Shown here: positions 15,840 to 55,753 of the stretch, piece by piece
Numbering within the stretch: position 1 is the first letter of the stretch
How the letters are laid out: each line of letters starts with the position of its first letter
NCBI GenBank assembly: GCA_934378145.1
Contig: CAKXXW010000004.1
Span: forward strand, 14,658 to 78,657
Length of the DNA: 64,000 bases
Reading direction: 5' to 3'
From: an uncultured Eubacteriales bacterium
GTDB taxonomy: Bacteria; Bacillota; Clostridia; Oscillospirales; CAG-272
Notes under the pieces: generated by a model
Database searches by the model: none
What the model was told of the DNA's origin: nothing
Seen by the model: only the letters and a program-made list of their open reading frames with translations
Position numbers and translations under genes: made by a program

Positions 15840-15850
15840 AAGCGCAATTG

Positions 15851-15890: not shown

Positions 15891-15927
15891 ATAAGCATAA
15901 AAGTAACGGAGGTCAATGCAAATTTAT

Positions 15928-15960: not shown

Positions 15961-16049
15961 CTTGTTTATTCAGTGTTGAAAAGCACACGAAAAATCGAAA
16001 CTGTATTTTTCAATACTTTCGTAAAGTATATAACTTTAAGAATATAGAT

Positions 16050-16246: not shown

Positions 16247-17371
16247 ATGCCAAGGAAAGGTGAAAACATTTATAAAAGAAAGGACGGCAGATGGGAAGGC
16301 AGATATATCTGTTTTTACGATACGGCAAACAAAGCCAAGTATGCCTATGTTTACGGACGAACCTACGGGGAAGTAAGGCAGAAGCTCATTGAAAGGCGCA
16401 GTTCCTCCGGACAACAGATGCATTCTCAAAAGCAAGCCATGATATATAGCGAGCTGTTGGATCTGTGGCTCAACTCATCACAGTTAAGCACAAAGGAGTC
16501 GACGCACGCTCACTATACGCAACTTATAAGTACTCACATCAAGCCACAGCTCGGTTCTTACAGTCTTTCGTGCATTACCCCTAAAATAATAGAAAACTTT
16601 ATAAAATTGCAGCTTTCCGAGGGCAGACTTGACAATACGGGCGGTTTAGCGCCAAAAACAGTTGCGGATATTCTTTCTATTGTAAAAAGTACGATAGAAT
16701 ATGCGAAGTATTTGGATCTTCCCATGATATGTAATCTCAACAAGTTAACGGTAAAGAAAAAAGATAAAGAGATCCGTGTTTTATCGGATGAAGAACAAAA
16801 ATTGTTGCTGAGTGTTTTGCTGACAAATACAGATCCGTACAAATTCGGAGTTTTTTTGTCCCTTTATACCGGTATTCGCATCGGTGAATTGTGTGCATTG
16901 CAATGGGAAGATTTTGACTTTGCCCACAACACCGTCAAAATAAATAAGACTATACAACGCATACAAAATACAGAAGATGAGACCTTTTCCAAAACAAAGG
17001 TCGTCATAACCGAGCCGAAAAGCAAATGCTCGGTAAGAACGATACCTTTGCCTATATTCGTTGCGGATACGGCTGCGCGGTTTGTTTCAAGCCCTAATGC
17101 ATATATATTGACCGGTAAGGATCATTATGCCGAACCGCGTACGATGCAAAACAGATTCAAGGCAATAGTTAAGGAATGCGGCATATCGGATGTTAATTTT
17201 CATGCGCTTCGGCATACTTTTGCCACACGATGTATTGAAGCGGGCTTTGAAATAAAAAGTCTGAGTGAGATACTCGGACATGCAAATGTAAACATTACTC
17301 TCAACCGATATGTTCATTCTTCCTTTGAACTGAAGTCCATAAATATGAATAAGCTGAGCTTATCTGTTTAA
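16247..17371 (+). CDS. tyrosine site-specific recombinase (phage integrase family)
   Basis: GGGAGG at 16233-16238 precedes the ATG at 16247. The N-terminus is arm-binding-like (IYKRKDGRWEGRY). The catalytic region has GIRIGEL (Arg), HALRHTFATR (H-x-x-R) and LGHANVNITLNRYVH (His...Tyr). Confidence 0.9.
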   Translation: MPRKGENIYKRKDGRWEGRYICFYDTANKAKYAYVYGRTYGEVRQKLIERRSSSGQQMHSQKQAMIYSELLDLWLNSSQLSTKESTHAHYTQLISTHIKPQLGSYSLSCITPKIIENFIKLQLSEGRLDNTGGLAPKTVADILSIVKSTIEYAKYLDLPMICNLNKLTVKKKDKEIRVLSDEEQKLLLSVLLTNTDPYKFGVFLSLYTGIRIGELCALQWEDFDFAHNTVKINKTIQRIQNTEDETFSKTKVVITEPKSKCSVRTIPLPIFVADTAARFVSSPNAYILTGKDHYAEPRTMQNRFKAIVKECGISDVNFHALRHTFATRCIEAGFEIKSLSEILGHANVNITLNRYVHSSFELKSINMNKLSLSV

Positions 17372-17517
17372 GCCGTCAAAAACACAGTCAGAAAGACTGA
17401 AATCCTTAGTAAATACGAGGGATTCGGTCTTTTTTTCGTTGAGTTATATACTTTACGAAAATGCGATTTACAGAATATGACAGGGATTTCGGCGATCCGA
17501 CACTCGGAGGTGTGCCT

Positions 17518-18531
17518 ATGCATAGCGTATATTATAATAATTTGAAAAATAACAAAAAAATATACGATGCTGCTCTCCGATGTTTTCAGAACAGAGAAAA
17601 AAGTTTTTCTGTCGAGGCTTCGTTCCCGGTAAATGAATTGGCTGTCGAGGTCTTGAATGATCATCCGGAAATCTTCTATGTGGGGCAGGAATTCAGAGTT
17701 ATGACTGGAATATTTCAGAGAGAGATAATGCCCGTATATTTGTATTCTCCCATCGAGGTCCTGAATATTCGTGATAAACTGAACGATACGGTCAAAAGAA
17801 TTATCGGCGGAAATATCAACAGGCATCAGTCAGACTACGACAAGGTTTGCTCTCTGCATGATTATTTCAAAAGCAACCTGAAATACGATACTGTCGCCGC
17901 AAGCGTTCACAGACCGAATGACCGCACCGTTGCAGAAGCTCACAGCATAGTCGGAGCGCTCCTTGAAAACAAGTGCGTATGTGAGGGATTTGCAAAAGCC
18001 TTTAAGCTCCTGTGCGATAATATCGGATTGGAATGTTGGGTCGTTTCGGGCATGGGTAGAAATTCAATCTGTTCCGGCCCTCACGCGTGGAATATTGTAA
18101 AAATAAACGGATATTATCACCATGTCGATGTCACATGGGATAATCAATATGCGGATCCTTCGGGGTTCCTTAACTACGGTTATATGAACCTGAGCGATGA
18201 TGAGATATCTTCGGATCACACATGGAACCGAAATAATTATCCCGCATGTCCATCTTCTCCATATAACTATTTTCGGGTAAACAATGCTTTGCTTGACAGC
18301 AGAGTTCAGCTCGAAAATATGCTGTACAACTGTTTTCGGGCGGAAGATGAATTCATTATGTTTCGGGTAGTGCGCAGAAGCGCCTTGGAAAGGGAAATAA
18401 ACGTTTGTCTGACAGACAGTATCCGACGGGCGTCAGAGCGATGTAAACACATTTCCGTTTCCGCGTTTCGATGCGGCGGAGTGGCGGAACAGCTTACATT
18501 TTTTGTTCAGCCAGATTACTGTTACGGATAA
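17518..18531 (+). CDS. transglutaminase-like cysteine peptidase-fold protein
   Basis: GGAGG at 17506-17510 precedes the ATG at 17518. The Cys-His-Asp pattern is CVCEGFAKAF ... GPHAWNIV ... HHVDVTWD. Confidence 0.75.
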   Translation: MHSVYYNNLKNNKKIYDAALRCFQNREKSFSVEASFPVNELAVEVLNDHPEIFYVGQEFRVMTGIFQREIMPVYLYSPIEVLNIRDKLNDTVKRIIGGNINRHQSDYDKVCSLHDYFKSNLKYDTVAASVHRPNDRTVAEAHSIVGALLENKCVCEGFAKAFKLLCDNIGLECWVVSGMGRNSICSGPHAWNIVKINGYYHHVDVTWDNQYADPSGFLNYGYMNLSDDEISSDHTWNRNNYPACPSSPYNYFRVNNALLDSRVQLENMLYNCFRAEDEFIMFRVVRRSALEREINVCLTDSIRRASERCKHISVSAFRCGGVAEQLTFFVQPDYCYG

Positions 18532-18612
18532 GCCGAGAGGCTTTTTCAGGTCCGAAATGATCCGACAATAAAAAATTATTCATATACGGAGACAGAGGAG
18601 GTACAGAAACCT

Positions 18613-19218
18613 ATGGAAGAAAAAAACAACATTTCCACAGAGGATCTTGAGCAGACACAGGAGGTTCCCAAAGAAACACAGGATGAAAAGGATGAGCTGA
18701 TTTCAAGGTTGGATGCTGTTCGGCAGTCGCTTGCCGATCTGCAGCAGAAATTCGATGACAAGATCGCCGAGGATGAGTACAAGAACGGTCTTTTCGATAA
18801 TATGCACCGTGAATTGGTCCTTTATCAGAACGGGGCATTGGATAAGGTCGTTGATACTGTTGCGCTTGATATTATCCAGCTCGTTGACACCACGAAGGGT
18901 CATGTCCGTGTTTACGAGGATAAGGAGCCTACCGGAGAAAATTACGGGAAACTCCTCAGGATCGTCAAGGGCATTGCGGAAGATCTTGAAGATATTCTTT
19001 ACCGTCAGAATATCGAATCATACAATGTTCCGGGCGATGAAGTGGATGTCCGTCGTCAGAAGATCATTCAGACCGTTCCTACGGATGACAAATCCAATGA
19101 CAACCTCGTGGCGCTTCGTGTCGCCGACGGATATGAAAAGGGCGATAAGGTCCTCAGACCCGAGAGGATCAAGATCTTCAAATATGAAGCCGCGCCCGAA
19201 ACATCTTCAGAAAGTTGA
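18613..19218 (+). CDS. GrpE-like nucleotide-exchange factor paralogue
   Basis: An acidic, coiled-coil N-terminus and a C-terminal beta-domain signature ...VADGYEKGDKVLRPERIKIFKY (compare GrpE GY..x..VLRPAxVxV). GGAGG lies 9 nt upstream of the start. Confidence 0.65.
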   Translation: MEEKNNISTEDLEQTQEVPKETQDEKDELISRLDAVRQSLADLQQKFDDKIAEDEYKNGLFDNMHRELVLYQNGALDKVVDTVALDIIQLVDTTKGHVRVYEDKEPTGENYGKLLRIVKGIAEDLEDILYRQNIESYNVPGDEVDVRRQKIIQTVPTDDKSNDNLVALRVADGYEKGDKVLRPERIKIFKYEAAPETSSES

Positions 19219-19249
19219 ATATAAAACATAGAGACGAAAGGAAAAAATC

Positions 19250-20926
19250 ATGGGAAAAGTATTTGGCATTGACCTTGGCACAACTTATTCGTGTATCGCA
19301 TACATCGACGATAACGGAAAACCTGTTGTACTGAAAAACGCTGAAGGAGATCTCACCACCCCTTCAGCAGTGTTCTTTGAGACATCTACCGATGTCACCG
19401 TCGGCTCTGCTGCAAAGGAAAGCGCGAAAATGTATCCGGAGCAGGTCGTGACTTTCATCAAGCGGAGTATAGGACAGCCCGGCTTCAGCCTGAATATCAA
19501 CGGTATTGATATGAAACCGGAAGAGATATCCTCATACATTCTTAAAAAAGTAGTTAAGGATGCGGAAGACTCTCTCCGTATGGAGGGCAAACTCGGCGAT
19601 GACGAGAATATCCGCGATGTCGTCATTACCTGCCCGGCATACTTCGGAGTTACCGAGAGGGATGCAACCAAGGCGGCGGGCGTTATTGCCGGTCTTAATG
19701 TTATGGCGATCATCAACGAGCCTACCGCTGCGGCTATCACATACGGTGTAACGGATGACAGCCTGGACAAGACCGTTCTTGTTTATGACCTTGGCGGCGG
19801 TACATTCGATATTACCATGATAAATATCAAGCCGGGAGAGATCCGTGTTATCTGTACCGGCGGCGACCATAACCTCGGAGGTAAGGATTGGGACGATCGT
19901 GTTCTTATGTATCTTGCGGAGCAGTATCAGTCCGAAACCGGAACCCCCGATAATATTCTTGAAGATGCGGAAACACTGCAGGAACTCAGCCTTGCCGCGG
20001 AGCGTGCAAAGAAGCTTTTGAGTGCAAAGGAAAAGGCTCCTGTTGCCGTGAACTATATGGGTGAGCGCGTTCGTGTTGAGCTGACCCGCGAAAAATTCGA
20101 TGAGCTTACCGAAGATCTCCTTACCCGTACAATTGACCTTACCCGTGAAATGTTCAGGGAATCCGAAAAGAAGGGCTTTACTCAGAACGATGTGAGCGAG
20201 ATCCTTCTTGTCGGCGGTTCCTCAAAGATGCCGCAGGTAATGAGTCGCGTCAAGAGCGAATTCGGTATCGAGACCAAGATGTTTGATCCGGATGAATCCG
20301 TTGCAAAGGGCGCAGCCATCTACGCAAACAAGATGAGCGAATTCAACATCGTTCTTGAAGAGATCGCAAAGCAGCAGGGCAAGAGCGTTGAGGAGGTCAA
20401 GGAACAGGTCGACAACGGTCAGATGGACCTTCAGAAGGAAGCCAAAAAGGCGAATATCCAGATGCGCGGCGGACGCCTCCCGGGGGAGGATGTCAAGATC
20501 ATCAATGTATCAAGCCGCAGCTTCGGTACCTGCGCTTATGATGCAAACGATCAGCTCAAACTGTTCAATATTATTATCAAGAACGCCGAGCTGCCTGCGA
20601 CGGGAACAAACTCTTTCTATCCTCGTCAGAATAATCAACAGCTGGTCCGGTTCCAGATCATGGAGAGCCTTGCTTCCGATGAGATAGTAGATCCCGAACT
20701 CGGCAAGGAAATAGGAACAGCGGAACTGACCCTTCCTGCGGGTGTTACTGTTGACACCGAAATCAGGGTCACTTTCCGCTTGGATGAATCGGGACTGCTC
20801 CATCTCAATGCCAAGGAGCTTAAGGGCGGTCGTGAGGTAGATGCCGAATTCCAGACGACCGAGGCACTTTCCGAGAAGGAAATGAGCGATGCCATTCGCC
20901 GAAGCAACAATTCAAGTGTCAACTGA
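19250..20926 (+). CDS. short Hsp70-family ATPase (558 aa; not the housekeeping DnaK)
   Basis: GIDLGTTYSCIAY, IINEPTAAAITYG, VYDLGGGTFDITMI and LLVGGSSKMPQV. A beta-sandwich substrate-binding domain is present. The helical lid is short, and there is an extra charged insert before the interdomain linker. Confidence 0.9.
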   Translation: MGKVFGIDLGTTYSCIAYIDDNGKPVVLKNAEGDLTTPSAVFFETSTDVTVGSAAKESAKMYPEQVVTFIKRSIGQPGFSLNINGIDMKPEEISSYILKKVVKDAEDSLRMEGKLGDDENIRDVVITCPAYFGVTERDATKAAGVIAGLNVMAIINEPTAAAITYGVTDDSLDKTVLVYDLGGGTFDITMINIKPGEIRVICTGGDHNLGGKDWDDRVLMYLAEQYQSETGTPDNILEDAETLQELSLAAERAKKLLSAKEKAPVAVNYMGERVRVELTREKFDELTEDLLTRTIDLTREMFRESEKKGFTQNDVSEILLVGGSSKMPQVMSRVKSEFGIETKMFDPDESVAKGAAIYANKMSEFNIVLEEIAKQQGKSVEEVKEQVDNGQMDLQKEAKKANIQMRGGRLPGEDVKIINVSSRSFGTCAYDANDQLKLFNIIIKNAELPATGTNSFYPRQNNQQLVRFQIMESLASDEIVDPELGKEIGTAELTLPAGVTVDTEIRVTFRLDESGLLHLNAKELKGGREVDAEFQTTEALSEKEMSDAIRRSNNSSVN

Positions 20927-20968
20927 TAAGAATGACATTTGGCTTATGCGAGGAAAGACGGTATTTTA

Positions 20969-23917
20969 ATGGAAAATTATTTTATACTTTTGGAGCTTCC
21001 GTTTGACCCGCCGGAGGGAGATACCCAAAAGATCAACGAGGCTATTTCAAAAAAACAGGCACAGTGGTCTCGGGATCAGTCAAATCCGGTAAAGAAGACC
21101 AAAGCAAGTGAGTATTTGGCGGAGCTTGAAAAGATCAGAAAGGTAATGCTTGATCCGGCAGCCCGCAGGCAGGAAGCCGAAAAAGCAAAGCAAATAAAAG
21201 ACAGTAAGGCGAAAGAGCTTGAAGCAAAGCTCATGCTGTATCATTCCAAGGGTGACGATCTGTCCGAAGAAGATCTGAAGAAGCTTGCTAAGGTATTCGG
21301 GGCATTCGGGTTTTCCGCTGATGAGATAAAACAGAAATTCAACAGCGAGCGGAAGACCCGGGAGAAGATAAACCCGTCAGAGGTCCTTGACAAGACTCAG
21401 GCGCGGAATGTCCGGAATTTTATGCAACAGCTTGACATGAGGGATCAGACCCTGTATGACTTCCTGTGCCTTGATCCGGCAGCTTCATGCACTCAGCTTT
21501 GCGCAGCAGCCGATTCCATGAAGAAAAAGATACTTGCAAAAGGCGATAAAACCGGTCATGATAACGCGGTTCAGGCATTGTGCGGTCTTTGCATTGTAAT
21601 TTTCAAGGATGCGGCAAGCAAGAAAAAATATGACAACTATGTAAACCTTACAAAATACAGATTGGTCAATGAAGCTGTTGATGAGCTTGCGCTGGGTAAT
21701 CAGAAGCGCATCGATCCGAAAATGAAAGAAGGGCTGATCGATACGGCTGTCCGGCAGTATCACATCAGCGTTTCGGATGCTTCGGTTTATATCAATTATT
21801 ACTGCGAATACATGGGCTATGCCCTGCCCGAGAATAAGATCGTATGCGGTCTGTGCGGCGCGGAAAACCCAGCCGGTACCACAAGCTGCATAAAATGCGG
21901 AAAACCGCTCGTTATCCAGTGCCCCGCCTGTTCTGCTCAAAACAATAATTCAGCCAAGGTCTGTGCAAAGTGCGGATTTGACCTTACAAAGATGGATAAG
22001 GCTGTTGAGCTTTTACGGCAGGCAAAGCAAAAGTTCGCGGAAAAATCATACGAAGAAGCCGAAAGGCTTGTTAAGGAAGCCGAGGCGTACTGGCCTAACC
22101 ACGCCGATGCACTCAGTCTTGAAAAATCGATCCATGATGAGCGTAAGCAAGCGGCAGAGATCGTTGCGGCTGTTATGAAAGATATTCAGGACAAGAATAT
22201 GTATGCTGCACAGACAAAAATCGACCAGGCGAGAGCAAAAGGCTTCAATGTCGATCCTTCCGTTGCCGATAAAGTCTCCGCAGTCCTGAAAGAGGTGGAG
22301 GATCGTCTCTCTGTGATGCGCAACGCTTCCGGCGACGAAGCGTTTACCATTGCGGTAAAGCTTACCGAGATCATTTCGGATTCGGATGAACTCAATCAGA
22401 GTCTCAAAAAATTCCCGCCCGATGAGGTCTCTTCTCTGAACAGCAAAAGAGTCGGCGACGAGGTCACATTGACATGGCAAAAGAGTCCGTCCATAGGAGA
22501 AGTATCCTATATCGTGGTACGCAAGGAAAACACTTATCCTAACGGCCCTTCCGACGGTGAGACGGTTTACAACGGCAAGGAGCTTGCCTATACCGACAGA
22601 AGTGTGCATAAGAATGCCGTTCTGTATTATTCGGTTTTTGCGGTCCGTGTCGGAGTTTATTCAAAAGCGACCCGACTTGATGAGGCGGTTGCCGTTGTTG
22701 AAAAGATCACGAATCCGAAAGCTGTCGGCGGGGACGAAATGGTCACACTGTCATGGGCAAAGGATCCGACGGTCACCGAGGTCAGGCTTTATAAATATTG
22801 CGGTTATGAAAGACCGCAGGATGACAGTCGGTATGAGCCGATTCCGTGTACACGGCTGGACGGGATCATTATCAACGGACTGACCAACGGTGCAAGCTAT
22901 TGGTTTGCCGTCAGCGCCGGTCATACACTCAACGGTAAAACATACTTCTCCGAAAAGACCTATCTGTCTGCCGTTCCGCAAAAACCCGCAAAGCCTTTGC
23001 AGAATTTTTCGGTCCGCCTTGTCGACGATGTCTTTCAGGCGAAGTGGATAAAGTCCGAATGGGATGTTATCTTGTTTTACGCAAAGCAGAAGCCCGAATA
23101 CGCCATCGGCACGATCTACGATCTGAGTGAGCTTTTGAGCAAGTATGAAAAGATCGACATCAATATGAAGAGCCTTACAGAGGCGGAGTTCAGACTGAAT
23201 TTTGTCGGTGAATGCTACATCGTTCCCGGTGTCATAAACGCCTCAAATGTGATCCTGAACACGGCTTCTTATATATCTGCCGTTCCCGGAGCAAAGGATG
23301 TATCCTTTGATATAAATTCCGCTGCGACGGAAATGTATGTAAACTTTACATGGCCCAAAGATATAGACAGATCTCTTCTCGTGTACAGAACGGATGAGTA
23401 CCCTACCGGGACAGATGATCCGCTGGCTCATAAGATAGAGTGCAGTAAGCGTCAGTACGAAGCAAACGAAGGTATTTTGATTTCCAAGCCGGCGCAGGGA
23501 ACCATGTATGCTGAGGTTTATACATACTTTGAAAATGACGGTCATCGTGTATATTCGGATGCCTGCCGTGTCCTTCTGAGTAATCAACCTCCAAGGGATG
23601 TACTCTATACATTCACTTACAAAAAGCCGGGGCTGTTCAGTAAGAAATGTACGCTGACTTTGGAACTGCAAACCGACGGAGATTGTGTATTCCCGGAATT
23701 TGTTATCATAAGTAAATACAAAAGCACTCCGTTGAATCGTGGCGACGGCAATGTTTTATGCAAGGTGAACGATAGTATCGAGATCAAGGGGCGGCAGTGC
23801 ATCATTGAGTTTAATATTTCACCGATTAAGCCCGACACCAGACTTAAGATGTTCTTCCTGAATGATAAGAACTATAAATCTTTCAAAATTGCCTGTAAAG
23901 CGGGAAATATCATATAA
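20969..23917 (+). CDS. large multidomain protein: two HPD-less J-like domains, a double zinc ribbon, a helical/TPR-like segment, and an array of FN3-like beta-sandwich repeats
   Basis: NYFILLEL...KINEAISKKQAQWSRDQSNP...YLAELEKIRKVMLDPAARR follows the J-domain helix pattern with SRD in place of HPD. A second copy is LYDFLCLDPAAS...KKYDNY. The zinc ribbon is CGLCG..CIKCG..CPAC..CAKCG. Repeated ...VTLTW/LSW...Y.V.A... modules follow. I prefer the ATG at 20969 over the TTG at 20939. Confidence 0.6.
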   Translation: MENYFILLELPFDPPEGDTQKINEAISKKQAQWSRDQSNPVKKTKASEYLAELEKIRKVMLDPAARRQEAEKAKQIKDSKAKELEAKLMLYHSKGDDLSEEDLKKLAKVFGAFGFSADEIKQKFNSERKTREKINPSEVLDKTQARNVRNFMQQLDMRDQTLYDFLCLDPAASCTQLCAAADSMKKKILAKGDKTGHDNAVQALCGLCIVIFKDAASKKKYDNYVNLTKYRLVNEAVDELALGNQKRIDPKMKEGLIDTAVRQYHISVSDASVYINYYCEYMGYALPENKIVCGLCGAENPAGTTSCIKCGKPLVIQCPACSAQNNNSAKVCAKCGFDLTKMDKAVELLRQAKQKFAEKSYEEAERLVKEAEAYWPNHADALSLEKSIHDERKQAAEIVAAVMKDIQDKNMYAAQTKIDQARAKGFNVDPSVADKVSAVLKEVEDRLSVMRNASGDEAFTIAVKLTEIISDSDELNQSLKKFPPDEVSSLNSKRVGDEVTLTWQKSPSIGEVSYIVVRKENTYPNGPSDGETVYNGKELAYTDRSVHKNAVLYYSVFAVRVGVYSKATRLDEAVAVVEKITNPKAVGGDEMVTLSWAKDPTVTEVRLYKYCGYERPQDDSRYEPIPCTRLDGIIINGLTNGASYWFAVSAGHTLNGKTYFSEKTYLSAVPQKPAKPLQNFSVRLVDDVFQAKWIKSEWDVILFYAKQKPEYAIGTIYDLSELLSKYEKIDINMKSLTEAEFRLNFVGECYIVPGVINASNVILNTASYISAVPGAKDVSFDINSAATEMYVNFTWPKDIDRSLLVYRTDEYPTGTDDPLAHKIECSKRQYEANEGILISKPAQGTMYAEVYTYFENDGHRVYSDACRVLLSNQPPRDVLYTFTYKKPGLFSKKCTLTLELQTDGDCVFPEFVIISKYKSTPLNRGDGNVLCKVNDSIEIKGRQCIIEFNISPIKPDTRLKMFFLNDKNYKSFKIACKAGNII

Positions 23918-23928
23918 GGAGACAAAAA

Positions 23929-25044
23929 ATGGCAGGAAAATTTCTGTGTCCACGATGCTTTGAATTACAAAGCCTCGATAAAATAGAGTACATTTGTTCA
24001 AATACAAGCACATCATCAAAATGTCAGCACGCGATCGACAGAACGCCTCAGCATCCGGCAAACCTGAAAAAACCGGTATGCGAGGAGTGCGGACAGCCCC
24101 TCGTGACCAAGGTGTGTCCCAAATGCGGCGGCGAACTTCCGCTGAACATAGGGACCGCAAAGAGCTATCCGATTGCAATTATCGGTGCAAAGGAAACCGG
24201 CAAGAGCAACTATGTTGCGGTTCTGATAAATCAGCTTAAGAATGAGGTCGGGCGTTCCTTCAACTGCGCTCTGATGGCTTGCGGGGACAAGACCCTGAAC
24301 CGTTACCGCACGGATTTTTACGATCCTCTGTATCGTCACCGTACCTGTGTACGCGGCTCGGATGCAGGTGATGTCGATCCGCTTATTTACTCTTTGATCT
24401 TTCAGAGAAAGGGCGGTTTGTTCAAGAAAGCCGTAAATGATGCCGTTTCCCTGACTTTCTTTGATACGGCGGGTGAAAACCTTAATTCGCTGGCTTCAAT
24501 GCAGACCTTTAACCGCTATCTTTATCATTCATCAGGCATCATTCTTCTGCTCGATCCCCTGCAGCTTCCTGCGGTAAGGGCAGAGCTTCAGGGAAAGATA
24601 CGCCTGCCCGAAGAGAATACCGACGTAAACACGATCCTCAACAGAACTATCGAGATCATCAGGACAGGATCCGGTTTGACGGATCTCAGTAAAAAGATCG
24701 ATATCCCGATCGCGATCTCTTTCACAAAGATCGATGCCGTTGACGAGCTTCTCGATCCCGCAAGCTGTCTGAAAAACGATTCGGCTCACATTCGTAAAGG
24801 CTTTTTTGACAAAGTTGATTTTGAGGATGCCAACAATGAAATGCAGAGCCTGGTTGAAAACTGGCTCGGTACCGAACTGTATCAAACGGTATCTACTCAG
24901 TTTTCAAATTTTGCATTCTTCGGTCTGAGCGCTTTGGGCAGTAATCCGGATATGGATAACAAGATCCCGAAGTTCCGCCCGTTCCGTGTCGCGGATCCGT
25001 TTCTGTGGATACTTTCACAGGAACAGATAATTCCGGTTAAATAA
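23929..25044 (+). CDS. zinc-ribbon-fused P-loop GTPase (soluble paralogue)
   Basis: The N-terminus has CPRC...C..C and CEEC...CPKC. G1 is GAKETGKS (24184-24207), G3 is DTAGE (D179-G182), and G4-like is TKID (T266-D269). AGGAG lies before the ATG. Confidence 0.7.
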   Translation: MAGKFLCPRCFELQSLDKIEYICSNTSTSSKCQHAIDRTPQHPANLKKPVCEECGQPLVTKVCPKCGGELPLNIGTAKSYPIAIIGAKETGKSNYVAVLINQLKNEVGRSFNCALMACGDKTLNRYRTDFYDPLYRHRTCVRGSDAGDVDPLIYSLIFQRKGGLFKKAVNDAVSLTFFDTAGENLNSLASMQTFNRYLYHSSGIILLLDPLQLPAVRAELQGKIRLPEENTDVNTILNRTIEIIRTGSGLTDLSKKIDIPIAISFTKIDAVDELLDPASCLKNDSAHIRKGFFDKVDFEDANNEMQSLVENWLGTELYQTVSTQFSNFAFFGLSALGSNPDMDNKIPKFRPFRVADPFLWILSQEQIIPVK

Positions 25045-25055
25045 GGGGGACCGTT

Positions 25056-27644
25056 ATGAAAGCATTGCAATACATATATACTTCCTGGAAGAACGGTGAC
25101 TCTACTGAAAAGGGCTATATGATATACTCTCGTTCCGAGGGTATTACGGATTCCGAGTGCAGTGCGATCAAGGATGCCATGCAGTATCTTGCCCCAAAGG
25201 GATTGACGCTCACGCCAACTCCGCAGGAGATCGAAGACATATTTCCGTATGCGTTTGCTTATTTTGTACTCCCGACGGGCAGGGGGTGTGTTGCTCAGTC
25301 AACCTATCTCGGGAAAGACTACTCCGGCAGATATGGGAACTATATCATTCACGCGTTGATCTTTGATATTGACGATCTGCCGTGCCGCCCCGCGGAGTTT
25401 TTTGCCGAACCGTACATAAAGACCGCGATGACTCAGGAAGAATTGGATGCCCCTTCTCCGGTACCGCCGTTGCCGCCGTTGTATATATCAGAGTATGCGT
25501 CGGTTATAAATGACGAACAATTAAATGAATTCCTTTTTGACAAGGAAGATGAATTTTCACAGCTTATTTCACTTGTTCTGGCGGCACAGGACGCCGGTGT
25601 TCCGTTTTATCTGAACGATTCCCGCGAGAACCTTGTGTTGTGGTCCGCCGCCGTTCAGAGAATACTTCCTTCTCGGTTGGCAAAGAAGTTCACATTCAAT
25701 ACCTATATCGGGAACCACGAATCAATGCGTTCTCCGAGAGCAAGGGAAGAGAACCTGAACTTTATGCTTATCGGGGTAAGACCTGATGCGAATTATTTCA
25801 ATTACGCAACCGAAAGCAACAGCAATTGCCAGATCGTGATGGACTTTGTCGGAGGATACATGACACAGGGAGTTCTTCCGGGCAGTTTTGCACGCGCTAT
25901 GGCGGCGAGTATGGCATTTGATTGTGAAGAGGTCGATGCTTTCGGTGAATTTGTCGACTCTACATCATTCGATGAGATCAGCGGTCATTTGCAGGATGCC
26001 TATCTGTATTATCACCTGCTGAAGCACGACGGGTTTGAATTCACCGAAAACGATCTGAAGGCGGTGCTTTCATTCGGTTCCGATTATTGCTCCGAAGCTG
26101 ATAATTCGGATATAGGGAGTAAACTGTTGGTCAAGGCCCAGGAGAATGAATGGACCCTTGATCCCGAACTGTTTGCGGTGTTCTGGAAGTTTATTTGCAG
26201 ATATTCGGGCTTTATGATATTCACACTGTATGAGCTGTTGACCGAAACGCTCTTTCAACATGCAGGTGAAGCCTCCGGACCCTGCATCGGACTTGAATCA
26301 TTGATAAATACCTTAAAGGAAGAGACTCCGGAGCAGTACAAGGGTTATCTTGATTACCTGAACTCCTCAAGCAGCGTAGAACACCTGCTCCTGTATCTGT
26401 CCGGACATAACAATCCGTTTACCAACAGCTTCTACATAAAATGGTTGCTTCGCAGCTATTCGTTCAGCGGCGGTATGTCAAACGGTCAGCCTATCTCAAA
26501 ACTTTTGCAGGTCTTGCTGAAGAATGTTACCCGCATAAATGGATGTGAAAAGCAGATGATGGAAATTCTTATTGCCACATCCGATAATCAGGTACTTTTC
26601 AAAAACATTTTCGGCATTTTTATGATCGCATTGCGTGAGTCGAAACAGCTTGATAGGTTTTGCGATGAGTATCTGGATGCAGCAGCTTCTCTGACGACCG
26701 GGCAACTTGATCGGTTTGAACAGTTGTTGCCTGAAGCGCCGGGATCCGAACCTGTCGCTACAAGGCTGTTCGCAAGGAAGATCGCAGCCTCAGATGATCC
26801 CGAAACCGAGTTCTGGCATTTCTACGGCAATCAGCGTTCCCGTATTTCCGAAAGCTCCGGAGTTTCCGCTGATCCCATGATACTTGCATGTGTCAATAAT
26901 GTTGAAGCCAAGAAACGCACGGAGGTTGCTGTTGACATCCTCCGAAAGATCGATCCGTCGCAGATCAATGATCGTGAAACTATCCGAACCCTGACTGATG
27001 CTGTTGAGGATTGCAGTGTGAAGGAACTTTCAAAAATGGAAGTATCCTTTTTGCAGAAGGTTTGTCAGATCCGAGCAAAGGTTGATAAAAACGGTCCGGA
27101 AAAGATCACCGCGGTCCTCGTCGGAGAAATGTTGGCTACAGATAATGCACAACGCAGACGCCCCGTAAAGCTGGCAGGTGAATTAGCAAAAACAAAAATC
27201 ACTTTGCAGCATTTGGATAAATCGGACTACGAGTCTTACCTCAAGAACTACTTCGGTGAGTATTTTGTATTGATAAAGACAAAAGAGGATATTCCGGCGC
27301 TGGTCAGGATCTTTTATCACGGTCAGTATTTTTCGAGTTTTGCGGATGATTATATGTCTGCGTTGAAAAAAGCGGAAAAAAGAGAGCCGGAAATCCGGGA
27401 TCGCATTCTCGGATGGACATGCACATATGTGGTTACTGCCGAAAGAAGTGATCCGGGTGCAGATGATATGTATAAACCGCTTGTCCGTTATTTGCGTTCG
27501 TTAAATGAAGATGAATTGTCGGGTGTTCGTAAATTCGTCACTAAGGATGTTCCGGCTGCCCGCTGCGACTATTTGTTCGACGAAGCCCGCCGCAAGGAAG
27601 GCATTTCGGAAAAGCTCGGCAACCTGTTTCATAAATTCAAATAG
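25056..27644 (+). CDS. large (862 aa) mostly helical protein with a GAP1-like (GTPase-associated protein) N-terminal domain
   Basis: The N-terminus LQYIYTSWKNGDSTEKGYMIYSRSEGI...GNYIIHALIF resembles my memory of GTPase-associated protein 1 N-domains. The rest has no motifs I recognise. The gene is flanked at 11-15 nt spacing by GTPase-system genes. Confidence 0.45.
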   Translation: MKALQYIYTSWKNGDSTEKGYMIYSRSEGITDSECSAIKDAMQYLAPKGLTLTPTPQEIEDIFPYAFAYFVLPTGRGCVAQSTYLGKDYSGRYGNYIIHALIFDIDDLPCRPAEFFAEPYIKTAMTQEELDAPSPVPPLPPLYISEYASVINDEQLNEFLFDKEDEFSQLISLVLAAQDAGVPFYLNDSRENLVLWSAAVQRILPSRLAKKFTFNTYIGNHESMRSPRAREENLNFMLIGVRPDANYFNYATESNSNCQIVMDFVGGYMTQGVLPGSFARAMAASMAFDCEEVDAFGEFVDSTSFDEISGHLQDAYLYYHLLKHDGFEFTENDLKAVLSFGSDYCSEADNSDIGSKLLVKAQENEWTLDPELFAVFWKFICRYSGFMIFTLYELLTETLFQHAGEASGPCIGLESLINTLKEETPEQYKGYLDYLNSSSSVEHLLLYLSGHNNPFTNSFYIKWLLRSYSFSGGMSNGQPISKLLQVLLKNVTRINGCEKQMMEILIATSDNQVLFKNIFGIFMIALRESKQLDRFCDEYLDAAASLTTGQLDRFEQLLPEAPGSEPVATRLFARKIAASDDPETEFWHFYGNQRSRISESSGVSADPMILACVNNVEAKKRTEVAVDILRKIDPSQINDRETIRTLTDAVEDCSVKELSKMEVSFLQKVCQIRAKVDKNGPEKITAVLVGEMLATDNAQRRRPVKLAGELAKTKITLQHLDKSDYESYLKNYFGEYFVLIKTKEDIPALVRIFYHGQYFSSFADDYMSALKKAEKREPEIRDRILGWTCTYVVTAERSDPGADDMYKPLVRYLRSLNEDELSGVRKFVTKDVPAARCDYLFDEARRKEGISEKLGNLFHKFK

Positions 27645-27659
27645 AAAGGAGATCATGTG

Positions 27660-27878
27660 ATGAACGAAAAGCGAAAATGTATGGTGGGGCATGATGATGA
27701 TCACGGCGGATGTTTCGGATGTCTGTTTACGGTTCTGATAGCAATTATCGTAATAATGATAATATGCGCAGTTGTTGTCTTCGGCGGTGTTTTTATCGGC
27801 GGCTTCCATTCGATCAAGAATTACATTCTTGCGTTCAAGCACAATGTTTTTGACAGCAACCTTGCTCCCGCAAAATGA
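27660..27878 (+). CDS. small membrane protein (72 aa)
   Basis: AAGGAG at 27646-27651 lies 8 nt before the ATG at 27660. The sequence HDDDHGGCFGC is followed by a hydrophobic stretch of about 35 residues (LFTVLIAIIVIMIICAVVVFGGVFIGGF). Confidence 0.5.
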   Translation: MNEKRKCMVGHDDDHGGCFGCLFTVLIAIIVIMIICAVVVFGGVFIGGFHSIKNYILAFKHNVFDSNLAPAK

Positions 27879-27913
27879 AGAATTAGCTCAATAAAAGAAA
27901 GGAGACTTTTGTT

Positions 27914-29326
27914 ATGGCAAACACGCAACCCGCAAAGAAAAGCTATTTCTTCGGAAAAGGCTATGTTGATTTGTGGAACACAATCAAAGAATCATGGGCA
28001 AGGAACTTTCAGTCCGCAGGTAGGCAGTTCGCTCTTGCCAAGGCAAACAGAGTCCTCAGCATAAAGGGTGGAATTCATCTTATCGCCGCAATCTGTATCG
28101 TTACATTCGGCAGCGTTATTTCGGCTTTTACCACTCTGTTCCACATTACCGTTCTGTTTGCGTTTTTCGCTTTGATCTATGTAGGTTTCAGTATCGTCTG
28201 GCTGATTGACAGGATCTACATAATGATAAATAAGATCAAAAACGCCTGTCCGAATCCCGATTGTCAGGCGTCGTTCCTCATCCCGGTCTATGAATGTCCG
28301 CAGTGCGGCGCAAAGCATACGAAGCTGGTACCCGGAAAGTACGGAATTTTCAAACGCACCTGCAATTGCGGACATAAGCTCCCCACGACCTTCCTGAACG
28401 GTCGCGGACGACTTAAGGCTTATTGTCCGAAATGCGGTAATGCGCTGTCCGGAGACACAGCGAGCCGTCAGTATGCATTTCCCGTTATCGGCGGACCGTC
28501 CGTCGGCAAGACCTGCTTCATCAATATGGCTATTGACCAGATGATGACCGATGTTGCCCCCCAACGCGGCTGGCAAATGAACTTTATTTCCGAAACCGAA
28601 GAAAAGGACCATGATCTCGCTATGAGGTCGCTGAATCAGGGCGTCCGTTTGTTGAAGACCGAACTTGACTCCCTTACCGCTTATCAGTTGATGCTTAAGC
28701 TGCCCAAGGAAAAGATCGGTCGCCGCATTTACATTTATGATATTTCGGGTGAAATGTTTTCGAGCAGCGGTGATGTTCAGCACAACCTTGCGTACAGCTA
28801 TGCAAACGGTTTTATATTTATTATCGACCCGCTTACTCTGAGTCAGTTTGCTATGGATGTTGAGGATAAACTTGACCCGGCTTCTTACGGTGCAAGCTCC
28901 AAGGACTTTGATGACATTCTCAACATTATGCTGATTAACCTTGAGAAAATGTTCAACCTGAAGGATAAGGATATATTGAAGCGCGATCTTGCGGTGGTGA
29001 TCAACAAGGTAGATATTCCCACTTTGGAGGAGAAGATCGGAGAGACCGCGGTGAGACAGTACCTTGATGATAACGCCGATACCTGCAAGACATATCCGGA
29101 TGCCCGCGACGCGGTTTGCCGCAGCTTCCTCGAGGAATACGGTGCCGGCAACTTTGTCCGTACCGCGGAAGCCAAGTTCAAAACGGTCAGATACTTTACC
29201 TGCAGCGCCCTCGGTCATAACAATGAGGGGCAGCCTTATGAAGGCAAGAATGTTGTCGATCCGGTAATGTGGTTGCTCCAGCGTGCTGATTCAAGCATTA
29301 AGATTGATCAACCGGTAACAAAGTAA
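27914..29326 (+). CDS. membrane-anchored zinc-ribbon P-loop GTPase (paralogue of 23929-25044)
   Basis: Two TM helices (about residues 52-100) and four Cys pairs (C112/C117, C128/C131, C150/C152, C171/C174). G1 is GGPSVGKT (28490-28513), G3 is DISGE (D276-G279), and G4 is NKVD (N364-D367). It shares hhhhDPL(Q/T)L after G3 with the other GTPase. Confidence 0.7.
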   Translation: MANTQPAKKSYFFGKGYVDLWNTIKESWARNFQSAGRQFALAKANRVLSIKGGIHLIAAICIVTFGSVISAFTTLFHITVLFAFFALIYVGFSIVWLIDRIYIMINKIKNACPNPDCQASFLIPVYECPQCGAKHTKLVPGKYGIFKRTCNCGHKLPTTFLNGRGRLKAYCPKCGNALSGDTASRQYAFPVIGGPSVGKTCFINMAIDQMMTDVAPQRGWQMNFISETEEKDHDLAMRSLNQGVRLLKTELDSLTAYQLMLKLPKEKIGRRIYIYDISGEMFSSSGDVQHNLAYSYANGFIFIIDPLTLSQFAMDVEDKLDPASYGASSKDFDDILNIMLINLEKMFNLKDKDILKRDLAVVINKVDIPTLEEKIGETAVRQYLDDNADTCKTYPDARDAVCRSFLEEYGAGNFVRTAEAKFKTVRYFTCSALGHNNEGQPYEGKNVVDPVMWLLQRADSSIKIDQPVTK

Positions 29327-29333
29327 TTATGTT

Positions 29334-29384
29334 CTGAAAGCACTTCGTCGGAGCAGCGAAAAGCCCTGACCGAAGTGCTTTCAG
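29334..29384 (+). promoter_or_regulatory. intercistronic stem-loop (14-bp perfect stem, 23-nt loop, no T-tract)
   Basis: CTGAAAGCACTTCG (29334-29347) pairs with CGAAGTGCTTTCAG (29371-29384). Confidence 0.5.
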
Positions 29385-29412
29385 AGTTTACGGTATGACG
29401 GAGGGAACTGCC

Positions 29413-30117
29413 ATGAGGGGGCTTAAGGTATGCATTGCTTTACTTAATATTGCCGTTACGGTTGCTTTTCTGTATTTCGAAAATCGTCTGTCGCCGGCGG
29501 CTATGGGGATCGCAGTGCTGTTTTTTACTCTCAGCTCGGCACTTCATTTGACGGCACACGAATGCGGACATCTTGTCGGTGGTGCTGTAAGCGGGTATAA
29601 ATTATTGTGTCTGCAACTCGGTCCGCTGAATATTGTCAGCAAAAAGGGCAAGTTCGTTCTCGTGTGGAAAATGTCTTTTGACGGACAGTGCGTAATGATA
29701 CCGGAGCATACGGATCCGGTGCGTTTTATGTCATATAATATTGGAGGCGTCATTGCAAATGCTTTGATTGCGGTTCTGAGCTTTACGGCTTTGATCACAG
29801 GATCCTTCCGGTCCCGGCTACTGTTTATCGAACTTATATTTGTCGGCATACAAAAAATATTGCTGAACACAATTCCTCATAAAACGGGTTCGGTACCGAA
29901 TGACGGATACATTGTGCGGCTTCTTAAGGGAAATACTGCTGTTCAAAAGGATTATGCGATGTATTTAAGACTTTACGGTAAGCTGTTTTCGGCTGAAGAC
30001 ATAAAGGTTCAGGATTTTATGTACGAACGGGAGGAGCCCGGAAATGAGGAAGAAATGCTATATTACAATGAGATCATGGATATACTGAACTCCGTGAATT
30101 CGCAGACAAATAAGTGA
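29413..30117 (+). CDS. polytopic membrane zinc metalloprotease, site-2-protease (M50)-like
   Basis: GGAGGG at 29400-29405 precedes the ATG at 29413. HECGH (29557-29571) lies within a TM helix. A later LNTIPHKTGSVPNDGY resembles the S2P NxxPxxxxDG motif. Several TM segments are present. Confidence 0.65.
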   Translation: MRGLKVCIALLNIAVTVAFLYFENRLSPAAMGIAVLFFTLSSALHLTAHECGHLVGGAVSGYKLLCLQLGPLNIVSKKGKFVLVWKMSFDGQCVMIPEHTDPVRFMSYNIGGVIANALIAVLSFTALITGSFRSRLLFIELIFVGIQKILLNTIPHKTGSVPNDGYIVRLLKGNTAVQKDYAMYLRLYGKLFSAEDIKVQDFMYEREEPGNEEEMLYYNEIMDILNSVNSQTNK

Positions 30118-30149
30118 AAGGCAGAAGATGATTCATCTTCTGCCTTTCA
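30113..30149. terminator. perfect 37-nt palindrome (18-bp arms) at the end of the array; candidate right attachment-site remnant
   Basis: GTGAAAGGCAGAAGATGA-t-TCATCTTCTGCCTTTCAC. It overlaps the stop codon of the protease gene. Confidence 0.55.
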
Positions 30150-30366
30150 CTTATCGGGAATTATCGGTAGCTCTATCGGCGAGCGGTCGGTGGTGTTTTC
30201 GGGGCTGTCTGTACTTTGATCGGGAGTCGCGGGAGTGCTTTCCGCAGTCGTTTTTTTGGGCTCTTCCGATTCACTCACGAAGGAAGCAAAACTCGCCCGC
30301 GCCATGTGGGTCTACGGAAATGCCGCAAAGACCTTTGCGGGAATATGATCGTCGGAGGCAGGAATA

Positions 30367-30489
30367 ATGAATCACACCGAAAAAGAAGTTTACGAGATCC
30401 CGCATATAGAGATCATCGCTCTGTCGACAGAGGATATAATGAGTGCATCCGACGAGGCATTTGAGATAGAAGACGAGTTGGAGATTTAA
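30367..30489 (+). CDS. 40-codon mini-ORF with its own SD and terminator
   Basis: GGAGG at 30354-30358 lies 8 nt before the ATG. The peptide is MNHTEKEVYEIPHIEIIALSTEDIMSASDEAFEIEDELEI, and a strong terminator follows. It is below the size cut-off of the supplied track. Confidence 0.35.
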   Translation: MNHTEKEVYEIPHIEIIALSTEDIMSASDEAFEIEDELEI

Positions 30490-30495
30490 GGAAAA

Positions 30496-30526
30496 AGCCT
30501 TCCGCCCTACGGCGGAAGGCTTTTTT
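30496..30526 (+). terminator. rho-independent terminator
   Basis: AGCCTTCCGCC-ctac-GGCGGAAGGCT followed by TTTTTT. Confidence 0.8.
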
Positions 30527-30550
30527 GTTATATAAAATGACGGTCTGCGG

Positions 30551-30579
30551 TTGATTATTTTCGCCGACTATGTTATAAT
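30551..30579 (+). promoter_or_regulatory. sigma-A-type promoter (extended -10) driving the structured leader
   Basis: TTGATT (30551-30556), 17 nt, TGtTATAAT (TATAAT at 30574-30579). Confidence 0.55.
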
Positions 30580-30587
30580 TCAGTTAA

Positions 30588-30764
30588 TCTTTAAGGCATC
30601 ACCGCGCAATTCCGATGGTGCAATTGCGAAGTCGAATTTTTCGTCAGACGATACAAAAATTCGCAGGCTGTAGCCGAGCTACAGGCAAGGATTTTTGTGA
30701 AGTATGACGGGAAAGGCGCGAGCAAGTGTGCCAATCGCGAATTGCGCGGTGATGCCTTAAGGAG
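30588..30764 (+). promoter_or_regulatory. structured 5' leader / unclassified cis-regulatory RNA candidate (or a MITE-like inverted-repeat element)
   Basis: A perfect 22-bp inverted repeat pairs 30591-30612 (TTAAGGCATCACCGCGCAATTC) with 30739-30760. Pairing can extend about 3 bp into the SD GGAG (30761-30764). Internal hairpins lie at 30633-30663 and 30668-30684. Confidence 0.5.
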
Positions 30765-30772
30765 AATTTCAT

Positions 30773-31696: not shown

Positions 31697-32100
31697 AGGG
31701 CGAGAAGGATTCTCTGTCGCATTACAACGGTCTTATAACTCTCAATTTCGGCGAGATAGTCAGCTTTGACGCGATCGGGTATATGTCGGGCAACCTCAAG
31801 GGCTTTGCGCAGGCGCAGGATGTCTATGTAAGCGACGACGGGGTTAATTGGACGAAGGTCGAGTCGGCGTGCTACGATGCGTTCCGGACTCCTCTGAAGA
31901 GCGTGGATCTATCGGAAATGAAGGACCCGTACAACGGAAACAAGGCGGGTGTCGGCGTTATGTTCTCTATGAAGGGCTATTCCGGAAAGTACATAAGGAT
32001 CGGCATCTACCGCGGAGGCATGATAAACACGAACACGACCGGTCTGCAGCAGATCAACACGCGCGAGATCGTGGTCTTCGGAAGCAGAAAGGCTTCCTGA
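31672..32100 (+). pseudogene. discoidin (F5/8 type C)-like carbohydrate-binding domain with no start codon of its own; probably the frame-shifted C-terminus of 30773-31696
   Basis: The other frame reads ...VDSDNYNIKGEKDSLSHYNGLITLNFGEIVSFDAIGYMSG...YVSDDGVNWTKV...YIRIGIYRGG. There is no SD or plausible start, and the two frames overlap between 31534 and 31696. Confidence 0.5.
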
Positions 32101-55730: not shown

Positions 55731-55753
55731 TTTAAGTAATTTATAATGAAGAT

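Follow-up and report, generated by a model that had tools for sequence, protein, structure and literature searches.

A nine-gene operon joining a dedicated Hsp70 to two zinc-ribbon GTPases, probably a member of the GAP1-N2 conflict systems, on a strain-variable island of an uncultured Eubacteriales bacterium

What is an Hsp70 chaperone set doing in one operon with two GTPases and a putative intramembrane protease? The question is raised by a locus on contig CAKXXW010000004.1 of an uncultured Eubacteriales bacterium (assembly GCA_934378145.1), of which we analysed a stretch of 64,000 nucleotides (hereafter the window, whose positions are used throughout). Nine open reading frames (ORFs), all on the plus strand and together spanning 17518–30117, encode in this order a transglutaminase-like protein, a GrpE-like protein, an Hsp70, a J-like protein with fibronectin type III (FN3, or FNIII) repeats, a soluble GTPase, a GAP1 protein, a small transmembrane (TM) protein, a TM-anchored GTPase and a site-2-protease-like (S2P-like) protein (337, 201, 558, 982, 371, 862, 72, 470 and 234 aa). 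An initial annotation, made from the letters alone, had described them as a dedicated chaperone module wired to a GTPase switch and carried on a mobile island. We read the locus as a complete member of the GAP1-N2 double-GTPase (DO-GTPase) conflict systems, of their HSP70/GrpE sub-theme, with a likely role in defence or competition against invading elements, and give this reading a probability of about 0.6.

The operon itself is as first described. An ORF check in the window and independent gene calls on near-identical public contigs place the same nine starts, each preceded by Shine-Dalgarno-like sequences. The intergenic gaps are 81, 31, 42, 11, 11, 15, 35 and 86 nt in order, which is the initially reported range of 11–86 nt, and the array is more AT-rich than its surroundings, with a GC content of 0.40–0.50 per gene vs 0.543 in the flanks. 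The motifs quoted at the outset are present (GAKETGKS/DTAGE/TKID, GGPSVGKT/DISGE/NKVD, HECGH...NTIPHKTGSVPNDG and ...GYEKGDKVLRPERIKIF), and the residues proposed for mutation, K92 of the first GTPase, K199 of the second and E50 of the HExxH motif, are numbered correctly. The catalytic motifs of the GTPases, the Hsp70, the transglutaminase-like protein and the S2P-like protein are intact and conserved.

Family membership rests first on the GTPases and on the protein encoded between them. The soluble DO-GTPase (GTPase-1; 23929–25044, plus strand, 371 aa) has two N-terminal zinc ribbons, the P-loop GAKETGKS, the Walker B motif DTAGE and TKID; it matches the Pfam families DO-GTPase2 (4.8e-6), DO-GTPase1 (2.7e-4) and DZR (1.1e-3), its 26.8 bits lying just below the PF19993 cutoff of 27. 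The membrane-anchored DO-GTPase (GTPase-2; 27914–29326, plus strand, 470 aa) has N-terminal zinc ribbons, the P-loop GGPSVGKT, the Walker B motif DISGE and NKVD, and passes that cutoff (DO-GTPase2, PF19993, 7.1e-8, 32.8 bits, cutoff 27). Both contain CxxC pairs and they match each other at 22–26% identity. The two zinc-ribbon GTPases first proposed are found again in the Pfam matches and the conserved motifs, which are essentially invariant in 14 loci for GTPase-1 and conserved in 15 sequences for GTPase-2. Hydropathy peaks at residues 47–72 and 80–98 of GTPase-2 agree with the two TM helices originally assigned to it, forming an N-terminal hairpin with no C-terminal TM segment. The GAP1 protein (25056–27644, plus strand, 862 aa) starts 11 nt after GTPase-1, and its N-terminus, earlier said only to look GAP1-like, matches GAP1-N2 (PF20013; 2.2e-23, 83.3 bits) and GAP1-M (PF20014; 2.6e-5, 24.8 bits), the cutoff being 24 for each.

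How widespread is this protein, and how does it evolve? Homologues of GAP1, about 861 aa long, were found at identities between 99% and 31%, and a GAP1 profile retrieved 1,227 clusters at 50% identity among 1.84 billion representatives, 343 of them at E≤1e-30. As for the GAP1-C domain of these systems, residues 216–862 have no Pfam match even at E≤10; they are alignable across homologues and fast-evolving, the C-terminal region of about 600 aa averaging 0.28–0.45 identity to homologues vs 0.7–0.78 N-terminally. Sequence searches of the PDB with the GAP1, GTPase-1, S2P-like and J/FN3 proteins returned nothing useful. The rates of non-synonymous substitution (dN) against one related locus (L001) were 0.03 for GTPase-1, 0.04 for Hsp70, 0.05 for the N-terminal and 0.17 for the C-terminal part of GAP1, 0.23 for the small TM protein and 0.29 for the S2P-like protein; GTPase-1 is the slowest-evolving gene of the operon (dN 0.02–0.03), and the FN3 protein is intermediate, not extreme. 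Synonymous substitution (dS) is saturated in every comparison, so that only relative dN is usable and positive selection is not assessable. Judged from these relative rates, the heterogeneity within the operon looks sensor-like.

The Pfam DO-GTPase and GAP1 families originate from Kaur, Burroughs, Iyer and Aravind (eLife 2020, PMC7159879). According to that paper, GAP1-N2 systems comprise GTPases with two N-terminal zinc ribbons, another GTPase that is TM-anchored, and a protein with FNIII repeats; a theme with HSP70 and GrpE makes up about 14% of the neighbourhoods, in Actinobacteria and Firmicutes, its FNIII protein being fused to DnaJ or TPR. The locus shares with this theme (i) a pair of paralogous DO-GTPases, both with a Walker-B Glu and zinc ribbons and one of them anchored in the membrane; (ii) a GAP1 protein (N2 and M) directly downstream of a GTPase; (iii) HSP70 and GrpE in a Firmicute host; and (iv) an FNIII-repeat protein, whose N-terminus here is weakly J-like and without HPD. 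Because PMC7159879 describes this HSP70-GrpE GAP1-N2 theme, the core of our finding had already been predicted, and the novelty that the initial annotation saw in the nine-gene combination was overstated. The GAP1-N2 themes are said there not to overlap. The tubulin and the kinase/PP2C themes have the DO-GTPase/GAP1-N2/FNIII core and a predicted membrane-proximal action in common with our locus; in place of HSP70 and GrpE the former has tubulin and vWA, and the latter a kinase, PP2C and vWA. What we add is that three further proteins, S2P-like, small TM and transglutaminase-like, are dedicated components, together with a toxin slot and an extended GrpE in relatives. The S2P-like, 72-aa TM and transglutaminase-like proteins, and the pair of extended GrpE and toxin-like gene (C7, below), go unmentioned in the available text of PMC7159879, and its supplement, to the extent that its text was available, contains no GrpE, HSP70, S2P or transglutaminase terms.

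Do the nine genes belong together at all? One alternative is chance juxtaposition, or an ordinary grpE-dnaK-dnaJ operon beside unrelated genes, since the order of the GrpE, Hsp70 and J-like genes mimics the Firmicute housekeeping order. We collected fourteen genome loci by GAP1 alignment and added further contigs. The order GrpE, Hsp70, J/FN3 protein, GTPase-1, GAP1, small TM protein, GTPase-2, S2P-like protein is shared by more than 12 independent loci (L001–L009, L011, L013, L018, L021 and L067) from Merdimonas, Ruminococcus, Faecousia, Acetatifactor, Oscillospiraceae, Lachnospiraceae and other Clostridia, and from a metagenome-assembled genome (MAG) of Fermentimonas (Bacteroidota), MAG binning errors being possible. 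In Bifidobacterium jacchi the synteny is partial. Because the gene order recurs in more than 12 loci, we consider the set to be one system, syntenic across genomes as had been expected of it, and such conserved synteny across several phyla speaks against chance. Three apparent 'Rosetta-stone' fusions, of integrase to the J/FN3 protein (P0256), of the transglutaminase-like to the J/FN3 protein (P0278) and of Hsp70, J/FN3 protein and GTPase (P0288), were rejected on reading as mosaic or chimeric contigs. They are Logan-contig mosaics, probably assembly chimeras, although two of the three share the breakpoint 'MDKAVELL'.

The ordinary-operon form of this alternative fails on the chaperones themselves. 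The GrpE-like nucleotide exchange factor is a short form (18613–19218, plus strand, 201 aa) whose assignment holds (Pfam GrpE, 2.7e-11); its orthologues in other loci have 276–437 aa, and it reaches at most 31 bits with the NCBIfam GrpE equivalog models, whose cutoffs are at least 137. The dedicated Hsp70 (19250–20926, plus strand, 558 aa; Pfam HSP70, PF00012, 2.2e-103) scores 350.6 and 338.6 bits with DnaK equivalog models, the cutoffs being 648 and 822, and the whole NCBIfam scan gave DnaK, GrpE and Xer matches only, all sub-threshold. Its ATPase domain is complete, as described from the outset, and nearest to Geobacillus DnaK (1e-75), with the catalytic residues conserved. The alignment to Geobacillus DnaK in the PDB covers residues 1–360 and 407–553, leaving an insert of about 45 aa and a divergent, weakly similar beta-sandwich substrate-binding domain; the helical lid, initially called short, is wholly absent. 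The locus shares with the housekeeping hrcA-grpE-dnaK-dnaJ operon the gene order and the intact Hsp70 ATPase residues, and differs from it in the lack of hrcA and of a CIRCE element, the lidless Hsp70 with its 45-aa insert and replaced Arg167-equivalent, and, as set out below, in being dispensable and horizontally spread. The absence of CIRCE that had been noted upstream holds for the entire window, with 0 matches even when up to 3 mismatches were tolerated.

The 982-aa protein (20969–23917, plus strand; Pfam DZR and Zn_Ribbon_1), which could be an adaptor or sensor, departs further from its housekeeping counterpart. Its AlphaFold2 (AF2) model (pLDDT 85) has a helical region of residues 1–282 with two J-domain-like four-helix units (residues 1–95 and 150–235), a double zinc ribbon at about 290–337, a helical TPR-like region at 339–481 and about five FN3 domains at 488–982, the last matched by Foldseek to fibronectin and cytokine-receptor FN3 arrays (E~1e-12); a precomputed Pfam match to Fn3_SaeA_2nd is also recorded. 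The helices of the J-like units follow J-domain topology in the model. HPD is absent from both units, Trp33 being the sole invariant residue there, and the protein has neither the G/F region nor the CxxCxGxG zinc-finger repeats of housekeeping DnaJ and carries FN3 domains instead. Of the architecture first drawn, the double zinc ribbon, the FN3 array and the loss of HPD are thus confirmed, whereas the two J-like domains are weakly supported by hhalign (scores below).

Arg167 of E. coli DnaK contacts the HPD of the J-domain. The equivalent position in the window Hsp70 is Ala153; of the 13 family Hsp70s, 12 have A, T or S there and the divergent one of L014 has Lys. This loss fits the loss of HPD in the J-like units, and the two together suggest that Hsp70 and the J-like protein make contact through a non-canonical interface. 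Some relatives (L003, at 4369–5358, and L014) have a second Hsp70 gene, ATPase-domain-only or divergent, and PMC7159879 likewise remarks on an additional HSP70 gene without the peptide-binding domain. Additional small J-like ORFs, or two copies of the TM-GTPase gene, also occur in some relatives (L003, L014). The initial annotation had asked whether the chaperones of the operon might be the organism's only Hsp70, GrpE and J proteins. The sub-cutoff equivalog scores, the absence of CIRCE and the conspecific deletions described below answer that the island chaperones are not the housekeeping grpE-dnaK-dnaJ copies. Chance juxtaposition and an ordinary chaperone operon are accordingly refuted by synteny, by equivalog scores far below cutoffs, by the absence of CIRCE, HPD, G/F and CxxCxGxG, and by conspecific strains that lack the whole segment, and we assign them a practically negligible probability.

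We turn to the membrane-proximal components, which had been read from the start as the output of the module. The single-pass membrane protein (27660–27878, plus strand, 72 aa) has, as first noted, one hydrophobic segment, at residues 23–41 in the numbering of a 73-aa translation from 27657, flanked by the conserved juxtamembrane motifs CxVGHDDD before and GGFHSIKNY..FKHNV.DSN after the TM segment; in at least 11 loci an orthologue sits in the same position, after GAP1 and ahead of the TM-GTPase. The last gene (29413–30117, plus strand, 234 aa) adjoins the TM-GTPase in 13 other loci. The AF2 model of its product (pLDDT 91.9) combines four TM helices with a beta-hairpin sheet and, C-terminally, a helical domain, and both metal motifs lie in predicted helices. 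All 26 homologues keep H49, E50, H53, N152 and D164 unchanged, and at least 90% of them keep P155 and G165. Foldseek gave RseP (prob 0.97–1.0) and SpoIVFB (prob 0.92) as the sole high-probability matches, modest ones with E of 0.08–0.27 and TM-scores of about 0.3–0.38; the score with Peptidase_M50 (PF02163) is 13.2 bits for a cutoff of 27.2, and one homologue has a weak precomputed PF02163 match. The polytopic HExxH protease of the initial annotation stands in its motifs, helices and invariant residues, with a second motif spaced N-x2-P-x8-DG, not as first written, and with a sub-threshold M50 score. Like the site-2 proteases RseP and SpoIVFB (MEROPS M50), it has HExxH in a TM helix, an Asp in N-x2-P...DG and a membrane-reentrant beta-hairpin; it differs from them in having 234 aa only, no PDZ or CBS domain, the wider second-motif spacing and no sigma or anti-sigma partner in the operon. 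On the model, the last operon protein looks like a minimal S2P-like protease.

The membrane parts (S2P-like protease, small TM protein, TM-anchored GTPase) in a spore-forming host, with SpoVT nearby, could also belong to a module for envelope or protein-quality stress, in which Hsp70 and GrpE sense misfolded membrane or secreted proteins and signal to the GTPases and intramembrane proteolysis, as an analogue of RseP and SpoIVFB signalling. A lidless DnaK-like domain has indeed been proposed, in another context, to 'sense misfolded proteins' (PMC12642450). However, no sigma factor, anti-sigma factor or transcription factor is encoded in the operon, the distribution is patchy, strain-variable and horizontal across phyla, toxin-like genes are embedded in relatives, and related GAP1 systems, according to PMC7159879, share effectors with other conflict systems. 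We therefore hold this explanation to be very unlikely. The description favoured here, of a dedicated chaperone module joined to GTPases and membrane parts, agrees with the synteny and with the two-TM GTPase, the single-TM peptide and the S2P-like protease.

At the other end of the operon lies the transglutaminase-like Cys-His-Asp protein (17518–18531, plus strand, 337 aa, cytosolic). Its identity is upheld by a Transglut_core match (1.2e-10) and by the invariant triad C155/H189/D204. Scanning metagenomes with four aligned orthologues yielded 36 loci. Where a full-length homologue (at least 45% identity) was followed by enough downstream DNA, C7 and/or the GrpE-Hsp70-J/FN3-GTPase genes lay directly downstream of the transglutaminase-like gene in 14/14 loci; the apparent absence of this gene from the first loci arose mostly because the 10-kb flank ended short. 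It is thus a dedicated 5' component of the system, and its 'possible' membership in the initial annotation was an understatement. The idea that it fills a variable effector slot was given up, since the protein is conserved and its gene precedes that slot. It is a candidate thiol peptidase or effector-processing enzyme.

C7 is an extra gene of 740–1280 aa found in many loci between the transglutaminase-like gene and GrpE (L001, L005, L007, L018 and L032, for example L032:11224–15060). Its N-terminus is hyper-acidic and of low complexity, its core is conserved and bears HExxH (AHESRHCWQHE), and its C-termini switch among classes, some of them TNT-like (2.6e-5 and 6.8e-5, below the Pfam gathering score). 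In L013 an Endonuclea_NS_2 nuclease (1.6e-24) occupies the C7 slot. GrpE in C7 loci has a variable N-terminal extension of 120–240 aa, whose classes run parallel to those of the C7 C-termini (Spearman 0.48 over 120 pairs, uncorrected for shared ancestry). Within the chaperone module, C7 and the extended GrpE may thus form a pair of the toxin/immunity kind. The window has neither, and because both are missing it carries a reduced version of the system.

These relatives raise the question whether the system deploys a toxin. The GTPase/GAP1/Hsp70 machinery could control the folding, activation or membrane delivery of C7 in interbacterial competition, the GrpE extension acting as immunity protein or adaptor and the window being a reduced form. 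A conserved core with class-switching C-termini is typical of polymorphic toxins, a non-specific endonuclease takes the same slot in L013, the GrpE extensions group as the C7 C-termini do, both are jointly missing in the window, and several components are membrane-associated. Against this, no secretion signal or LXG/WXG/type VII secretion system (T7SS) marker was seen on C7, whose N-terminus is hyper-acidic; the co-variation is uncorrected for shared ancestry; the TNT matches fall below the gathering scores; and the nine-gene form without C7 is maintained, stable at about 99% identity in several samples. We consider a toxin-deployment module unlikely, and retain the reading of a conflict system directed against invading elements.

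Where does the system reside, and is it needed? As initially noted, the array stands just downstream of a tyrosine integrase (16247–17371, plus strand, 374 aa; Pfam Phage_integrase 9.1e-27 and Phage_int_SAM_3), which ends 146 nt upstream of the first operon gene. Its start is likely 16247 (the ORF is extendable to 16082, and gene calls give 372–374 aa), and its box II, LGH...TLNRYVH with the catalytic Tyr, is intact in the window. Six other loci have an integrase homologue (61–66% identity) some 5 kb ahead of the system. The upstream neighbours of the island are NFACT/RqcH and SpoVT, the downstream neighbour a GH127 glycosidase.

Strains of the same species were compared by blastn of contigs with 97–99% identical flanks against the window. 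Some carry the system (L015/L028, L026 and L029); in others it is gone. In five contigs (L022, L023, L025, L027 and L030) a 13.65-kb segment, 17298–30947, is absent and 17297 is joined straight to 30948. In a second, independent allele (L024), 17814 is joined to 31970, so that 17815–31969 is missing and the first 300 nt of the transglutaminase-like gene are retained. In the first deletion class the integrase lacks the box II TLNRYVH catalytic tyrosine, and because this motif was lost there the system-less strains are deletion derivatives. No empty integration site was found among these contigs; the polymorphism consists of deletions, not of a captured insertion. The system has thus been lost at least twice within the species. 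Since conspecific strains have deleted the segment, the island Hsp70 and GrpE are dispensable and not the sole chaperone copies. The integrase is frameshifted in L015/L028.

The mobile setting first proposed agrees with the low GC, the integrase, the strain variability and the integrase, transposase or relaxase genes that adjoin relatives: the locus lies on a low-GC, integrase-associated, strain-variable and horizontally spread island. Around it we found only short direct repeats at chance level where att-type repeats were looked for, and the island limits are not settable from them. Such a setting is also what a module serving the element and not the host would have, whether for addiction, entry exclusion or transfer control. 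A related tyrosine integrase repeatedly accompanies the system; in L032 the order is DDE transposase, integrase (66% identical to that of the window), helix-turn-helix (HTH) protein, HerA/FtsK-like ATPase, Big_2 protein, system; and in L018 relaxase/MobC genes and a giant helicase lie downstream of it. But deletion derivatives without the system and without the integrase catalytic Tyr persist in many samples, and there is therefore no strong addiction, and in L021 and L067 the system stands beside ordinary chromosomal genes with no element genes nearby. Maintenance or exclusion on behalf of the element is, in our estimate, quite unlikely to be its purpose.

How does the locus compare with known conflict systems? 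None of ten proteins matched PADLOC-DB v2.0.0 at E≤0.01, in keeping with the initial expectation that no catalogued system would be hit. The GAP1-N2 prediction in PMC7159879 is computational only, and a full-text literature search found no functional study of DO-GTPase/GAP1 systems, as the initial annotation had supposed. Two other cases link Hsp70 or J-proteins to bacterial conflict. A 2025 preprint (PMC12642450) describes lidless DnaK-like domains, as yet untested, fused to EACC1-protease modules: these share with our locus an Hsp70-family chaperone in a conflict system and the lidless DnaK-like architecture, and differ in having a caspase-like protease and EACC1 and neither GTPases nor GAP1. 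In bNACHT25, phage sensing is DnaJ-dependent (PMC12169576); it too places a J-protein in immunity, there as a host housekeeping chaperone acting with a NACHT protein, again without GTPases or GAP1.

Several observations weigh against a defence role for a complete GAP1-N2 system and lower its probability. The empty PADLOC-DB search and the lack of functional studies count here as well, and no known defence genes were seen directly adjacent in the window. Relatives of GTPase-1 were found in no sequenced phage, and plasmid collections held two distant ones only, on Rhodococcus megaplasmids. The TM-GTPase has two N-terminal TM helices, whereas the usual arrangement given in PMC7159879 is four N-terminal and one C-terminal. 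By hhalign against J domains, one J-like unit scores E=1e-3 (prob 19%), the other E=3e-5 (prob 72%), and Pfam DnaJ gives nothing on the 982-aa protein even at E≤10. Purifying selection acts on all operon genes, and no positive selection is demonstrable. Because the toxin-like C7 is missing, the effector in the window is uncertain. Finally, the repeated deletion within the species could mean that the system is simply decaying cargo.

What would the mechanism be? The soluble and the membrane-anchored GTPase may pair at the membrane and bind GAP1-N2/M to form a GTP-driven switch, with the C-terminal region of GAP1 and/or the FN3 array as the surfaces that contact a ligand. The J-like N-terminus would recruit the lidless Hsp70 through the non-canonical interface proposed above because HPD is lost from the J-like unit and the Arg167-equivalent from Hsp70, and GrpE would reset Hsp70. 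The chaperone cycle might then hold or remodel an effector or adaptor, C7 in fuller relatives and the transglutaminase-like peptidase here, and the S2P-like protease would make the response irreversible by cutting an anchor in the membrane, be it the 72-aa protein or the TM hairpin of the GTPase. We advance only tentatively the idea that this is the first prokaryotic immune or abortive mechanism built on a dedicated Hsp70 cycle and licensed by a membrane GTPase pair with GAP1 sensing the invader. It is likewise a doubtful, if possible, step that Hsp70 unfolds or releases a latent effector, transglutaminase-like here and an exchangeable NADase or nuclease toxin in relatives, and it is just as speculative that the GrpE-fused domain neutralises the toxin and that the S2P-like cut is the commitment step.

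The 3' end of the operon and its surroundings contain further structures. A palindrome (30111–30153; perfect 20-bp stem, 3-nt loop) overlaps the stop codon of the S2P-like gene. The terminal palindrome of the initial annotation is therefore real, although its span is not 30113–30149, and because only the minus strand carries its T-run it does not qualify as a canonical intrinsic terminator for the plus strand. A GC hairpin of canonical look, followed by a T-run and read from the sequence, lies 3' of it at about 30494–30527. Inside the operon, said initially to hold no terminator-like hairpin, there are a few weak matches with stems of 5–7 bp; terminator-like matches total 29 vs 17.8 ± 4.0 in shuffles, a modest excess. 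An acidic small ORF of about 45 aa (30368–30505), annotated as a gene in L015 and L016, directly follows the S2P-like gene and is in turn followed by the terminator-like hairpin. Farther on, a near-perfect hairpin of about 175 nt (30588–30765; minimum free energy −104 kcal/mol, z=−12.1), which has no match in Rfam, lies between a sigma70-like promoter (30551–30579) and an ATG at 30773, its 3' arm overlapping an AAGGAG ribosome-binding site; it is within the segment deleted from the system-less strains. Strong hairpins at 15928–15960 and 30111–30153 share the core GCAGAAGATG...TCTTCTGC and bracket the integrase and the nine genes; this pair could be a coincidence or a remnant of element ends.

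Elsewhere in the window, a frameshift splits the ORF at 15222–15979, upstream of the integrase, into pieces of 162 aa and 96 aa. Its intact paralogues (198–207 aa, no Pfam match) vary in copy number among strains, in the spot between SpoVT and the integrase. A second low-GC patch at 55746–59790 (0.41–0.46) encodes BspA-type leucine-rich-repeat proteins (LRR_5, 7e-65 and 3e-13), and LRR_5 genes flank a tRNA-Met on the minus strand at 58810–58886, the only match of an Rfam scan of the whole window.

What does the locus offer to the study of this family? No DO-GTPase/GAP1 system is known to have been studied experimentally, and Hsp70 derivatives in conflict systems are only now being noticed. At 12.6 kb the nine-gene version in the window is compact and apparently intact, deletion alleles of it occur naturally within the species, its catalytic residues form a defined set of targets for mutation, and its parts list is clearer than that of the 2020 prediction: a transglutaminase-like protein, a small TM protein, an S2P-like protein and a variable toxin slot. 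If true, whether for defence or for competition, our reading would bring together chaperone cycles, GTPase switches and regulated intramembrane proteolysis as parts of bacterial immunity, and would make testable the parallel with eukaryotic NTPase-driven immune assemblies proposed in 2020 (PMC7159879).

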